Notes: generated by a model not told the origin, from the sequence alone. Counted from the first letter of the stretch, positions 33,159 to 38,095 are shown. The stretch: 64,000 bases of DNA from an uncultured Cohaesibacter sp. (GCA_963676275.1 OY781091.1:658775-722774); one strand, 5' to 3'. Made by a program: numbers and translations.

Positions 33159-33190
33159 GCCTCCTGCCTCCTGCCTCCTGCCTCCTGCCT
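33159..33190. repeat. 7-bp tandem repeat (GCCTCCT)x4.5
   Basis: Directly visible perfect repeat in the intergenic region. Confidence 0.9.
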
Positions 33191-33531
33191 TCGGGCAAGC
33201 GGCGTGAGCCTGTGGTTCCAATCTCACCTTTCCCGTTGTCTATGAGGGCTGGCAATTGGCTCGATGCGATGCTGTCGTCTATCGGCCCTATGCCTTGATG
33301 AGAGCAGGAGGGGGCAGCACACCGCGACATGCTGTTTGGGACGGAGGAGAGCAAATATTCTGTTCTGCAGCTTTCATTGCATAGTCAGGCATTTGGTGTA
33401 AATTGTACGGCCAGATTAAGCAACCATTAGTATGTAATGTAATTTCAAAATGCCATCAATAGTAGTATATATTACGTATTTGTTAAGCATTACCATCGCA
33501 GGTAGCGTTATCCCTGATTGCGAGGTATGTC

Positions 33532-34998
33532 ATGACTTCGAAAGAGAATGGAGAAAGCGGTTCAGACCCGAAAAAGCCAAGAATAACCGACGTTAAGAAA
33601 GAAATGACCGGAAAAGGGTCGTCAGGTTTTGCTGGCAGCAAAAGCTTCTTTCACTGGGGCAAGATTTTTGCTGGTGCCTATTTGGCTTTTTTCTATGGCT
33701 TGGCCCTCTATTTGTCCGTCATGACGCTGGCAACGCACCAGATTCAGCAAAAAACCAAGGCATTGAGCACAGAATCTGTGCCGATCTATTTCTGGCTGCT
33801 GAAAGAAGTGGGTGACGAAGATCGCCGTTTGCAGGAATTACAACAAGATTCCGCAGATATCAAAAAGCTACGCGACGAATTAAATACTGCTTATCGTGAT
33901 CTGAAAAAAGTTGAACTGGAATATGATTTAAAGCGATTAGCTTACATCAACTTTATGAATGACACTCTGAAGCCCGCCGGGGTTGCCAAATTTAAATCAG
34001 AATATGTCGGCACCTATGCGCAACTGGAGAATAAATATACGTTCCTATATTCAAATATCGAAGATTATGTTGCAGAAAATTCGGATGCAGAACTGAAAAA
34101 GCTCGCGGATTTAAGGGGCGAATTTAACGCGATCAATGTGAAGAAAAAGGAGGCTGATGCCAATTACAATATTTTGCAAACATTATTGAATAATTACAAT
34201 GAATATGAAGAAGGTAGACGGGATGATGTTAAAGTTATTCTCGAAAAGGTTTATGGCAAAAATTACATTGATCACTTCAATCAAATTTACACGCTAGCTA
34301 AAGAATTCAGATCTTTGGAAGACAGTTTCTGCATTGAGCCTTTCGGTAAAAGGCTTTGTATAATGGAAACATTGGCTACCAAACAATCCGAAATCGTCAC
34401 GCTGGTTCTGGTTCTGATCATGGGCGCGCTGGGTGGGCTCATTCATCTGACCCAAAGTTTCCTCGATAATGAGGAAACGCCGGTCTCCTATTATATTTTC
34501 AGGCCAATCCTCGGAATTCTCGCTGCTTTCTCGATTTTTGTTCTGGTCAAGGCTGGTGTCTTGGTCGTGTCGGGAGAAGGGTTTGATGAAACCAAGTCGC
34601 TCAATCCCTTCTTCGTTGCCTTTCTCGGTATTGTCTCGGGCCTGATGGCTCAGAATGCAATCATGAATCTTCGACAGGCGGGCGCTAATCTGTTCCGCTC
34701 GCAAAATGCGCTGGAACAACCGCGATGGGCCATTGCCGATCCCGGCAACAGCGTCATGGACAAGCTTAAGCAACAACCGGACAAGGACATAGCCAAGCTG
34801 GCCAAGATTCTCGACAAGGAACAAGGGCAAGTTGAGGATTGGCTCCATGGTCGTAAATGTGCGCCACTGCATGTCCAGCAAGCCGTAGCATCGTGGCTGG
34901 ATAGCGATGTTCATGAGCTATTCCACGATATGAAGACTTTCAAACCAGATAACACGCTCCCAAAAACAGGGGGCCAAGAGCAAGATCCAAATTCTTGA
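33532..34998 (+). CDS. hypothetical 4-TM membrane protein with long coiled-coil loop and HTH-like C-terminus
   Basis: RBS GAGG. One TM near aa 45-67, heptad-rich loop, three TMs near aa 288-378, then DIAKLAKILDKEQGQVEDWLHG. AT-rich. Confidence 0.8.
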   Translation: MTSKENGESGSDPKKPRITDVKKEMTGKGSSGFAGSKSFFHWGKIFAGAYLAFFYGLALYLSVMTLATHQIQQKTKALSTESVPIYFWLLKEVGDEDRRLQELQQDSADIKKLRDELNTAYRDLKKVELEYDLKRLAYINFMNDTLKPAGVAKFKSEYVGTYAQLENKYTFLYSNIEDYVAENSDAELKKLADLRGEFNAINVKKKEADANYNILQTLLNNYNEYEEGRRDDVKVILEKVYGKNYIDHFNQIYTLAKEFRSLEDSFCIEPFGKRLCIMETLATKQSEIVTLVLVLIMGALGGLIHLTQSFLDNEETPVSYYIFRPILGILAAFSIFVLVKAGVLVVSGEGFDETKSLNPFFVAFLGIVSGLMAQNAIMNLRQAGANLFRSQNALEQPRWAIADPGNSVMDKLKQQPDKDIAKLAKILDKEQGQVEDWLHGRKCAPLHVQQAVASWLDSDVHELFHDMKTFKPDNTLPKTGGQEQDPNS

Positions 34999-35013
34999 TG
35001 CAAAGAGGTATCG

Positions 35014-35856
35014 ATGCTTAAGTTTCTCCTGGTTCTGGTGGCGCTGACTGTTGCTGGTTGTGCCACCTCCTCCGGTGTGAGGGAATTTCAGACCTATGCG
35101 AAGATTTTCGATGAGGTTGTCGAAGCATCTGACACGGTTTTGAACGAAATGGCCGCCCAAGAGCGCAAGCAAAGGATCAGGGCGCTTGACGGCAAGTCCA
35201 TCTCTGATCGCCTTGAGCGTGCGGATATTTCCGTCTTTGCGCCATCCGCAGATCCGCCCTTCGTGGCCTCCTTGCGTTTTGCCGTCCAATCGGTCGCGAC
35301 GATGAATGGCGTCCTTCTTGCCTATGCCGAGGGCCAGGCTCTGGAAGTCATGAAAGAGGATGTTAAACAGCTGCAAGCAGCAGGTATCGGTTTTGAAACC
35401 CTGCAAACCAGTGATCTGGTGTCCCCGCTGTTGGTAACAAGAATTTCCCAACTGGAGGAGGGGCTTGATGTTCTGATTGGCATCGGTTCGCGTGAAGCAT
35501 TCCGCAAGGAGCTGGCAAGCTCCTCTGACAAGATCAACAATTTGCTTGATGTTGTTCTCAGCCATTCAACAATCGCTTTTAGAACCCTGACCAGTAGCGA
35601 ATTCCGAGAATATCAAACCGTCCAATTCACGAATGCTGCCAGAGCAGCAGAATTGCGACAAAAGATAGCAACCAAACGCGAGATGTTGGCCGAATGGCTT
35701 CATTTGATCGAGCTTTCGCAACAAGCCCTGAACAAGGCAATCGCGGCGTCTGCCGAGAAATCCGGCCTTGAATACAGATTGGTCAACACGGCCGTTCTGC
35801 TGGGAGACATGAAAGCAAGAGCCGATCGTATCAAACGATTGGCAGCTCAGAATTAA
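35014..35856 (+). CDS. hypothetical alpha-helical lipoprotein
   Basis: MLKFLLVLVALTVAG-C lipobox; RBS GAGG; 15 nt after the upstream stop. Confidence 0.8.
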   Translation: MLKFLLVLVALTVAGCATSSGVREFQTYAKIFDEVVEASDTVLNEMAAQERKQRIRALDGKSISDRLERADISVFAPSADPPFVASLRFAVQSVATMNGVLLAYAEGQALEVMKEDVKQLQAAGIGFETLQTSDLVSPLLVTRISQLEEGLDVLIGIGSREAFRKELASSSDKINNLLDVVLSHSTIAFRTLTSSEFREYQTVQFTNAARAAELRQKIATKREMLAEWLHLIELSQQALNKAIAASAEKSGLEYRLVNTAVLLGDMKARADRIKRLAAQN

Positions 35857-35904
35857 CCACAAGAAGAGGAAACAAATCAAACGAGAGACGAGGGGAGCGG
35901 GAAG

Positions 35905-37725
35905 ATGAGCACGGAACTGGTCAAACTGGAAGAGACTCGGTCAAAGCTCAAGGATGCCATACAGAAAGTGGGGCAATCGGATTTGGCCGATGATGAAAAG
36001 CAAAGTCGCATTCTTGCCCTTGTCGATGAGATCGAAAAGCTCGACATCCTGCATATGAACCATGCCGCTAGTGAGATTAATGCAGCAGCTCAGGCTGTTC
36101 TCAACAAGGCGATTGAAAGCAGTGAAAATGCTCTGTCCAAGATTCTAGGCGGCCTTGTGAGCGAAGTGCGTGATATTTTGCGAGTCATTCGGGATGTCAC
36201 GTCAGATCCGGCTCCTGTCGTTCCCGTTCTGGAGCCGACGCCAGTCTATAAGGAAGCCGAAGCCGCAGATGACGACCCGGTTCTGATGCGCCAGGCCAAG
36301 GGCACGAGAGCCATTTACGGACATCTTGTCCGAGCGATACAATCCGCGCTCACCAGTTCGGGCCTCGATACCAAAGGCATCGACATGATTTTTGGTGAAG
36401 ATACCGAAGGCGCTCTGACCGTATGGCGATCCAGCACGGGACGGGATGCCCTGCAGGCCGTCATTCGCGTTTCAGACTGGAAAGACCTGACCGGTTTGCC
36501 CGAGCCCGACCTGTTTGATATTTGCGCTCAGGCAACGGCCGCTTTCGAAGGTCATGGCTTTGGCAAGATTGTCGGTGATTTCGATGGCGCGGTGATGACC
36601 TGGGGCTATCATGGTTTCACGCTCAAATATGGTCATTTACAAGCCGTTCTCTTGCTCATAGATCAAGCCGATCCAAAGATACTGGGCAGTGTCTTCGGAC
36701 AGGATCGAGCAAAGCAGTTGCGCAGCATGCTTGCGATGGATCTTGGTGATCAAATCGACTGGGCGCGGGAAACCGTGCTCGACGGAAACAACAAGATCAG
36801 GAATGACTGGTTTCAGCAATTCGCAGATCTTGGCGAACTGGAGGTCACACGCAAAGCGCAGTTGGCCTACAGTCGAAAAACCTATTGGCAAGCCATGGCT
36901 GTCCCGCAAGCTGCCGCAATGGGGCTCAGCGATCCTTTGAGCTTGGGAATGCTGTTTGATGCAGCCATTCAACAGGGAGGCGCATCAAGAAATACTGTCC
37001 AGACAGTGAAAGCCAAGAAAGAAGCCAATCCGTCCATGACCGAAATGGACCTGCGAGCTGAACTCGCCCACGCCTTGCGCAAACAGCTATCAAATTCGAA
37101 ATGGGCTGAAGATGTTTACGCTCGTCGCAAAACCTTCATTACGGGGCGCGGAAGAATACATGGTTACACTTATGACCTTGGCTATTGGGGCTTTTTTGCC
37201 TCCTATGACGAGAATGAGGGACGTCTCATACCGCCTCGTTCTGACACCATTTCCGCTTTGGCCGAGCCCATTGCGGCACAACAGAGTTTTGTCGACTTCT
37301 ATAATGCCAGAGTCCTGCCCTTGGCACCCAATTTTGCTGCCAAGGAATTTCTATTCAAGGGTGGTAGCAATCTTGTCGGGTCCTGCGCTAACCTGAACAC
37401 CGATCCGCCAGAGGAATTGTGGGAAAATGTAATAGAGCTTGCCAGACTCTTGCAGGCGATACGTACAAAGTTTGGCGTACCGGTGCGCATCAGCAGCTGC
37501 TACCGCTCGCCAGCTTATAATCGTTGTATCGGTGGTGCGAGCAAAAGCCAACATATGCGCTTTACGGCAGCCGATATAACCATTGCAGATACCGGCACAC
37601 CTTTGGCATGGTACAAAACCATTCTGCAAATGCGCAATGATGGCCTTTTCGAAGGCGGGATTGGGAGATATCAAACCTTTATCCATATCGATGTTCGCGG
37701 ACATAATTGCGATTGGGTGGGTTAG
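35905..37725 (+). CDS. multi-domain peptidoglycan hydrolase: helical N-domain, PG-binding domain, lysozyme/chitosanase-like domain, peptidase M15A
   Basis: IQSAL...G...IDMIFGEDTEGAL (PG_binding_1-like); AFEG...GDFDG...WG and FDAAIQQG (lysozyme-superfamily-like); SCYRSPAYN...SQH...AADI...FIHID (M15 Zn ligands). No signal peptide. Confidence 0.8.
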   Translation: MSTELVKLEETRSKLKDAIQKVGQSDLADDEKQSRILALVDEIEKLDILHMNHAASEINAAAQAVLNKAIESSENALSKILGGLVSEVRDILRVIRDVTSDPAPVVPVLEPTPVYKEAEAADDDPVLMRQAKGTRAIYGHLVRAIQSALTSSGLDTKGIDMIFGEDTEGALTVWRSSTGRDALQAVIRVSDWKDLTGLPEPDLFDICAQATAAFEGHGFGKIVGDFDGAVMTWGYHGFTLKYGHLQAVLLLIDQADPKILGSVFGQDRAKQLRSMLAMDLGDQIDWARETVLDGNNKIRNDWFQQFADLGELEVTRKAQLAYSRKTYWQAMAVPQAAAMGLSDPLSLGMLFDAAIQQGGASRNTVQTVKAKKEANPSMTEMDLRAELAHALRKQLSNSKWAEDVYARRKTFITGRGRIHGYTYDLGYWGFFASYDENEGRLIPPRSDTISALAEPIAAQQSFVDFYNARVLPLAPNFAAKEFLFKGGSNLVGSCANLNTDPPEELWENVIELARLLQAIRTKFGVPVRISSCYRSPAYNRCIGGASKSQHMRFTAADITIADTGTPLAWYKTILQMRNDGLFEGGIGRYQTFIHIDVRGHNCDWVG

Positions 37726-38019: not shown

Positions 38020-38095
38020 TGGTGGAGCTAAGCGGGATCGAACCGCTGACCTCGTGAATGCCATTCACGCGCTCTCCCAACTGAGCTATAGCCCC
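38020..38095 (-). tRNA. tRNA-Ala (GGC)
   Basis: Reverse complement GGGGCTATAGCTCAGTTGGGAGAGCGCGTGAATGGCATTCACGAGGTCAGCGGTTCGATCCCGCTTAGCTCCACCA; 76 nt, CCA end. Confidence 0.98.

Follow-up and report, generated by a model that had tools for sequence, protein, structure and literature searches.

The stretch of DNA considered here, referred to throughout as the window, comprises 64,000 nucleotides (nt) from an uncultured Cohaesibacter sp. (GCA_963676275.1 OY781091.1:658775-722774) and contains, in a low-GC region beside a tRNA-Ala gene, three open reading frames (ORFs) arranged in series on the + strand, which are named A (33532-34998), B (35014-35856) and C (35905-37725) and code for proteins of 488, 280 and 606 amino acids (aa), respectively. 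The original prediction, drawn by a model from the sequence alone, took these genes for a three-component envelope system. Its description of the locus proved exact on ORF calling, both in the common orientation of the genes and in the gaps between them (15 nt for A-B and 48 nt for B-C), as did its hand counts of GC content (15/60, 16/60 and 35/60). The three-component system itself did not survive comparison with other genomes: elsewhere A homologues occur alone, never beside B or C, and B-C pairs occur without A, so the trio is not a unit. Judged from these sequence comparisons, the functional unit appears to be the bicistron B-C, an unnamed and widespread pair, with A lying outside it.

B and C are preceded by Shine-Dalgarno-like sequences (AAGAGG and GGGGAG, respectively), and no terminator-like sites were found between the three genes. 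GC content is 44.6% in A, 51.6% in B and 51.9% in C, versus 55.9% in the window, and the number of promoter-like matches in the region upstream of A is not above the shuffled expectation. The features of the locus are the following:

33360-33531, + strand: AT-rich region upstream of A, 37.8% GC, with one promoter-like match at 33444-33473
33532-34998, + strand: gene A, membrane protein with four transmembrane segments, including a block of three, a 217-aa coiled-coil loop and a Cro-like tail
35014-35856, + strand: gene B, lipoprotein (Cys16), all-helical bundle, the constant part of the two-gene module
35905-36147, + strand: residues 1-81 of C, a helical hairpin called the handle, followed by a Pro-rich linker to about residue 125
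36307-36492, + strand: residues ~135-196 of C, PG_binding_1-like, with profile and structure-library matches
36502-37194, + strand: residues ~200-430 of C, GH46-fold domain, with a fold match and invariant acidic residues
37282-37725, + strand: residues ~460-606 of C, M15 (LAS) zinc peptidase, with a PF08291 match and invariant H550, D557 and H594
38020-38095, - strand: tRNA-Ala(GGC), 294 nt past the end of C and on the opposite strand

The hydrolase C and the lipoprotein B

C had been described as a hydrolase of 606 aa with two apparent catalytic domains and without a signal peptide, and this description holds: the two catalytic-type domains are a GH46-fold domain and a Peptidase_M15_3 domain, and neither a signal peptide nor a hydrophobic segment was found anywhere in the protein (the top 19-aa Kyte-Doolittle score is 1.18). 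In its AlphaFold model (predicted local distance difference test, pLDDT, 78) the helical hairpin (residues 3-81) is followed by the disordered Pro-rich linker and by the domains, with a second linker at about residues 433-459. The PG_binding_1 assignment comes from a weak Pfam match and from profile matches to 5tv7 and 1lbu, and in the C homologue of locus L035 this domain scores 24.9 bits against a cut-off of 23 bits. The region of residues ~200-430 has the fold of GH46 chitosanases (Foldseek matches to 7c6c and 6lwu, E 2e-4 to 8e-4, template-modelling scores 0.58-0.67); there is no Pfam GH46 match for C, and this domain matches phrog_30036 in PHROGs, with E215 and D227 invariant and D225 nearly so. 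This middle domain is regarded as a putative glycosidase-like member of the lysozyme superfamily. The C-terminal domain matches Peptidase_M15_3 (PF08291) at 6e-21, and again 1lbu, and its metal ligands H550, D557 and H594 are invariant and form the H-x6-D plus distal H pattern of the family. The catalytic-type residues and metal ligands of C are intact. The catalytic domains are of the kind known from phage endolysins (phrog_894, M15 endolysins of Flavobacterium and Vibrio phages and, in Thermus phage MN1, a GH46-like domain).

Two further ideas about C were discarded. The invariant residues C494 and C541 were considered as a periplasmic disulfide, which was dropped because some M15 domains of architecture 3 (L056 and L062; see below) and phage domains lack both, and a read-through fusion of B and C, which share a frame in the window, was ruled out because the frames of the two genes differ in L020. 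The window's own genome (G000) contains, at a site beyond the window, a second short M15_3 ORF (C1:3100217-3100699), which has an in-frame TGA and shares 37-39% identity with the C-terminal domain of C.

B is a helical lipoprotein, as had been proposed, with the lipobox VAGC, Cys16 and an all-helical AlphaFold model (pLDDT 86, predicted template-modelling score 0.82). Its close homologues form 22 clusters, and a profile built on B reaches 453 clusters at 50% identity, 245 of them below 1e-10, among 1.84 billion representatives; a lipobox is present in 123 of the 148 listed representatives of this superfamily. No family of Pfam, NCBIfam, PADLOC or PHROGs matches B, the best PHROGs match (phrog_812, E 0.28) being confined to the signal peptide, and no relative was found among 50,697 phage records. 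Comparison with the PDB, by sequence profile and by fold, and with BFVD, by fold, returned generic helical bundles only. B is a lipoprotein of a large helical superfamily that has neither a name nor a studied member. Export of C as a Tat hitch-hiker with B was also considered and ruled out, since the signal peptide of B in the window has no twin arginine.

A pair with interchangeable lytic domains

A B-type gene is followed, 5-122 nt downstream, by a gene for a leaderless handle protein in 22 of the 22 loci with enough flanking sequence (the pairing was seen in L019, L020-L025, L030-L034, L035, L037-L040, L053-L060 and L062). Close B homologues, found in Rhodobacterales including Tateyamaria, always precede a C homologue of 604-609 aa, and remote ones were sampled from a deltaproteobacterial metagenome-assembled genome (MAG), an Oceanospirillaceae MAG, metagenome contigs, 401 genomes of the order and a plasmid of Rhizobium leguminosarum. 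None of the 22 partners has a signal peptide, and across the loci they are built in the same way: a helical N-terminus of about 100 aa, a Pro/Ala-rich linker and then wall-hydrolase domains that vary from locus to locus, in nine architectures:

Architecture 1: PG_binding_1 + GH46-like + M15_3 (window and close relatives)
Architecture 2: M15_3 alone (L034)
Architecture 3: an unnamed lysozyme-like domain + M15_3 (L019, L056, L058-L060, L062)
Architecture 4: the lysozyme-like domain of architecture 3 + PG_binding_1 + CHAP-like (L037, L038, L053)
Architecture 5: CHAP (L054)
Architecture 6: PG_binding_1 + SLT (L055)
Architecture 7: GH24 phage lysozyme (L057)
Architecture 8: SleB-like + DUF2272 (L039)
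Architecture 9: a Lys-rich tail only, with no enzyme (L040, a B-type cluster of 11 members)

The handle has no Pfam or NCBIfam match, and handles of different architectures are connected by BLAST (1.5e-10, 2.5e-5 and 7.8e-5). Between architectures 1 and 3, identity is 23% in B and 21% in the handle, versus 47% in the M15 domain. B and the handle are thus the constant and fast-evolving part of the pair, and both are kept in the enzyme-less variant L040, suggesting that B works via the handle and not via a given active site. Taken together, these comparisons indicate that B and the handle have remained constant across bacteria while the lytic domains were exchanged. On a tree of B, each architecture forms one clade. 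Within one genus, two genomes (G165 and G081) carry pairs from different B clades, one with the CHAP module (L054) and the other with the lysozyme-like and M15_3 module (L056), and each of these pairs adjoins a homologous gene of about 575 aa whose product starts with M(E/R)RRL.AILAAD.VGYSRL.

The distribution of the pair is patchy. It was found in one of 20 genomes of the genus, in 12 of 401 (3%) in the order, as a single copy in each, and, for the remainder of the phylum, in about one genome in 400. Neither side of the pair has a conserved third gene, and the flanks are mostly ordinary chromosomal genes; elsewhere its neighbours include caspase, CHAT, TIR-STAND and WYL-type conflict genes as well as methyltransferase genes. 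In the window, A, B and C lie in the 3' flank of tRNA-Ala(GGC), which differs in content in every sister genome examined (L063-L066), its cargo there including a type I restriction-modification system (G017), IS21- and IS256-type elements (G004) and chemotaxis genes. Copies of the tRNA 3' end, of 27-34 nt, are present 13-28 kb away in G017, G007 and G002; att-type repeats of the tRNA-Ala 3' end were also sought around the A-B-C island, and none was found in the window.

One of the pairs (L062) is on a conjugative plasmid, pR132505 of R. leguminosarum WSM1325 (282424-284895), a cultured strain in which the two genes are RLEG_RS35445, annotated as a hypothetical protein, and RLEG_RS35560, annotated as 'D-Ala-D-Ala carboxypeptidase family metallohydrolase'. 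Two caspase-family genes lie upstream of this pair, and a Tse2-like fragment and an ankyrin gene downstream. In Rhodobacterales (L020 10790-13095 and L023 10772-13089), the pair is followed by genes for a 94-aa protein with a single transmembrane segment and for a signal-peptide protein of 673-677 aa composed of Peptidase_C14, PG_binding_1 and FGE-sulfatase domains. A two-gene conflict system of EACC1 and a caspase has been predicted by Kaur et al. (PMC7159879), and the two Rhodobacterales genes resemble it in layout.

Possible roles of the pair

The role that we tentatively favour, as a plausible reading of the sequence comparisons, is that the pair encodes a bacteriocin-like lytic toxin, C, and a cognate lipoprotein, B, which gives protection and with which the fast-evolving handle of C works. 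C would be made leaderless and be harmless in the cytoplasm of the producer, from which it would be set free by leakage or by lysis of some cells; the handle would then mediate docking or entry at the envelope, and the catalytic domains would cut the glycan and the peptides of murein. B, facing the periplasm, would act through the handle and capture or exclude C, protecting in this way the producer and its kin. Such a role would explain why C has no leader, why no machinery accompanies the pair, why the lytic ends are modular, why the constant parts evolve fast and why the distribution is patchy and tied to islands. It is also close to one proposal of the original prediction, an antibacterial wall-degrading effector with a lipoprotein for immunity and a membrane regulator, of which the B-C pair has proved real, A has dropped out and the immunity role is uncertain.

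Several observations weigh against a bacteriocin-like role. There is no evident route by which C could cross the inner membrane, no lysis or release gene is present with the pair, and the N-termini, as read by eye in the alignments, share no motif resembling a TonB or Tol box. The B gene precedes C in the operon, and B belongs to one homologous family whichever of the unrelated catalytic domains it accompanies, whereas classical immunity proteins vary together with the toxin domain; it is this constancy that makes a function of B as immunity protein uncertain. Polymorphic toxin loci typically have multiple copies or orphan cassettes, and neither was found here. In addition, the handle of the window class shows only moderate homology to those of the other classes (hhalign E 3.5e-4, probability 37%), and the grouping of each architecture in one clade of the B tree means that domain exchange has been old and rare, not rampant.

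A possible, though rather unlikely, alternative is an endolysin-style module for self-lysis or defence, in which C would be stored in the cytoplasm until a phage, a pore-forming toxin or a membrane effector (A, for example) breaches the inner membrane, and B would receive it at the outer membrane and aid envelope breakdown, leading to abortive infection or altruistic lysis. No other reading agrees so well with the missing leader of C and with the conflict genes nearby: endolysins work in just this way, without a leader, C has catalytic domains of the phage-endolysin kind, and the genes next to some pairs include the C14-PG_binding_1-FGE protein with its small transmembrane protein, TPR-CHAT, TIR-STAND, WYL and methyltransferase genes. 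In a sister genome, the same tRNA hotspot also contains a type I restriction-modification system, and in the window the pair comes after a protein with four transmembrane segments and a YLATT-like block. What speaks against it is that the pair is not accompanied by a conserved holin or trigger gene, that B has no phage or spanin relative, and that storing an autolysin constitutively, without a regulator close by, would be a risk to the cell, the role given to B being, moreover, ad hoc. The scan of PADLOC-DB 2.0 that had been suggested as a check for a defence system gave no match of B or C to a listed defence-system component, and coiled-coil noise for A.

It is also conceivable, and in our view unlikely, that C is a docked enzyme for remodelling the cell's own murein. 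B would then be an outer-membrane docking or activating lipoprotein comparable to the partners NlpI, NlpD and EnvC, the handle would be a regulatory arm as in EnvC, PcsB, CwlO and RipC, and export would take place by an unrecognised route. The combination of a coiled-coil arm, a hydrolase and a constant envelope partner does parallel the hydrolases controlled by FtsEX, the pair is often found amid housekeeping genes with no mobile elements near, and the tree of B shows every architecture as monophyletic. The known analogues, however, all have signal peptides, versus none of the 22 partners, and a core function is made less likely by the presence of the pair in no more than 3% of the order and one genome in 20 of the genus; besides, nine lytic architectures, among them a GH24 phage lysozyme, look like weaponry and not like housekeeping.

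Less probable still is that B and the handle form a hitherto unknown and self-sufficient, Sec-independent, Maf-like envelope-delivery route for folded enzymes without signal, in which B at the outer membrane would recognise the helical tag and bring the enzymes to the wall, the surface or the medium. If true, murein hydrolases of at least nine kinds would take this route.

That the three genes work together is very improbable. In this proposal, A and B would bridge the envelope in a spanin-like manner and export or deliver C, or A would regulate the pair, and it can draw on the gap of 15 nt without a terminator between A and B and on the long coiled-coil loop of A, for which a periplasmic location is predicted, and the lipoprotein nature of B. 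An i-spanin has a single N-terminal transmembrane segment and a periplasmic coiled coil, and its partner is an outer-membrane lipoprotein of about 60 aa; A has four transmembrane segments, and B has 280 aa and no phage relatives, so the bridge is not upheld. More important, the A family, which comprises 10 clusters among 5.8 billion proteins, is nowhere else adjacent to B or C, and A homologues are missing from all 21 of the other B-C loci. A homologues were found alone among unrelated genes in five other contexts (L014, L026-L029; two other Cohaesibacter genomes, one TARA assembly and two read-archive contigs), and even a copy that is 63% identical, on one of the read-archive contigs, has no B or C nearby. 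In Coralliovum, the A homologue is about 1.5 Mb away from the B-C pair of the same genome. The GC content of A, below that of B-C, suggests a separate acquisition, and A would have landed on its own in the same tRNA-Ala hotspot; its co-transcription with B-C in this strain is possible.

As for A itself, the topology that had been described, four transmembrane segments with a loop of about 220 aa, was confirmed: the hydrophobic segments are at 45-67, 285-311, 318-351 and 359-378, and the first two are separated by a loop of 217 aa, which is coiled-coil and variable in the family. The HTH-like tail is less clear, since the tail is conserved and gives only weak Cro-like HTH matches (YdaS_toxin in three of 10 family members). 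The three-helix membrane block is strongly conserved, with weak YLATT matches in seven of 10 members. Nothing in Pfam, NCBIfam, PADLOC or PHROGs names A, with only coiled-coil noise in PADLOC (LmuB, 0.0024) and likewise in a PDB profile search. A is a separate and rare accessory membrane protein of marine Alphaproteobacteria that is not part of the module. In another Cohaesibacter genome (L014, 9340-9819), an IS200-type transposase gene lies directly after the stand-alone A homologue, consistent with A being mobile on its own. In the window, the intergenic region between a TetR gene and A contains a tandem GCCTCCT heptamer repeated four times (33159-33186).

The original prediction had seen no phage, T4SS, T6SS or other machinery genes in the window, and the known delivery machines were searched for in the genomes that carry the module. 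TssC (PF05943) is absent from G000 and from eight of the 10 module genomes, and VirB4 (PF03135) from G000 and from seven of the 10; the complete genomes G000, G020 and G135 carry the pair and have neither. A contractile sheath was looked for in the window's own genome, and no Phage_sheath_1C was found there. C ends in the M15 domain itself and not in a secretion domain like that of the type IV secretion system (T4SS) effectors called X-Tfe, and no ftsEX genes lie beside any B-C locus. In an uncultured marine lineage (L023-L025, 1-7482), an operon for an extracellular contractile injection system (eCIS), with sheath, gp19-like tube, Pvc16_N and AAA ATPase genes, is divergent from the pair, and tblastn searches with the eCIS proteins of L023 gave no match in G000. 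The idea that C is cargo of a contact-dependent machine (type VI secretion system (T6SS), antibacterial T4SS or eCIS) with B as lipoprotein immunity, which is suggested by that operon and by the leaderless murein hydrolases with periplasmic lipoprotein immunity that are typical of T6SS and Xanthomonas-type T4SS effectors, is extremely improbable in general, other loci having no such neighbours and three complete genomes neither marker, and is already contradicted for the window's genome, which lacks a sheath gene and homologues of the eCIS proteins as well. The pair is thus self-contained, needing no neighbouring machinery, and independent of known injection machines.

Whatever its role, B and the handle-tagged hydrolases constitute two sizeable protein families without a name or a studied member, and their strict pairing offers a simple two-gene system for asking how Gram-negative bacteria deploy signal-less wall enzymes without an injection machine. 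As a bacteriocin, the pair would represent a modular class of murein-degrading toxins in marine and soil Alphaproteobacteria, with naturally interchangeable lytic domains; as a lysis or defence module or as a delivery route it would be more unusual still. The annotation of the locus is corrected in any case, to a pair and an unrelated neighbour instead of a three-gene system. The prediction that the system is undescribed stands for the B and C families, which are unnamed in the libraries searched (for B: Pfam, NCBIfam, PADLOC and PHROGs), and not for three genes; literature searches found no description of the B-C pair.

Comparison with known systems

A wall hydrolase with an envelope lipoprotein as partner is a known theme, and what is new here are the unnamed families and the lack of an evident export route for C. 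Taken singly, the domains of C have well-known counterparts: the Zn D-Ala-D-Ala carboxypeptidase of Streptomyces albus (1LBU) combines, like C, PG_binding_1 with an M15 LAS domain, and the GH46 chitosanases (7C6C, 6LWU) share the GH46 fold. These are secreted single enzymes, whereas C joins both domain types behind the handle and has no signal peptide.

Effector and immunity pairs based on murein hydrolases are found in T6SS (Tae and Tge with Tai and Tgi, and VgrG3, which has a chitosanase fold) and in T4SS of the Xanthomonas type (X-Tfe/X-Tfi). They share with B-C a leaderless wall hydrolase encoded beside an envelope lipoprotein, as well as the use, putative in the case of C, of a GH46-type fold against murein. 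Differences are that these machines are absent from the window's genome, that B is a single family over unrelated catalytic domains and that the constant part of C is its N-terminal handle.

Some colicin-like bacteriocins, such as pesticin (with Pim) and colicin M (with Cmi), have murein or murein precursors in the periplasm as their target; they have an N-terminal uptake part and a periplasmic protective protein. Like C, they are leaderless and modular, with a C-terminal killing-type domain, a partner encoded alongside and a patchy horizontal spread. The B-C pair differs from them in having no TonB or Tol box that could be seen, no lysis gene, the partner gene in first place, two catalytic domains and no sequence kinship.

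Phage lysis cassettes are composed of endolysin, holin and spanin genes, and are taken here together with holin-dependent 'type 10' secretion (ChiWXYZ, TtsA). Here, as in B-C, a leaderless enzyme of the M15, GH24, CHAP or SLT type is encoded with an outer-membrane lipoprotein, but the pair has no holin or i-spanin, B has 280 aa and no phage relative, and the pair is cellular and not prophage-borne. EnvC, PcsB, CwlO and RipC, on the other hand, are coiled-coil hydrolases or activators under FtsEX that are Sec-exported and belong to the core genome. Like C, they have a helical hairpin arm and a hydrolase-type domain, and theirs is controlled via the arm by an envelope partner; this partner is an ABC-type complex and not a lipoprotein, while C has no signal peptide and is accessory.

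The nearest precedent in logic is the MafA-MafB system. MafB has a Sec signal peptide, and its gene is followed by MafI immunity genes. In Neisseria, the outer-membrane lipoprotein MafA, encoded upstream, is required for secretion of the toxin, whose N-terminus is conserved and whose ends are variable (PMC7738311, Arenas et al. 2020). Shared with B-C is a lipoprotein gene placed directly upstream of that for a toxin (a putative one in the case of C) with a conserved N-terminal region, as seen in 22 of 22 loci for the pair; MafA also acts with its cognate toxin, as B would with C. C, in contrast, has no Sec signal and no conserved downstream gene, the two systems have no sequence kinship, B and the handle have no match in Pfam or NCBIfam, and the cargo consists of murein hydrolases, so that by analogy B-C would be at most like Maf in outline, and not a member of that system.

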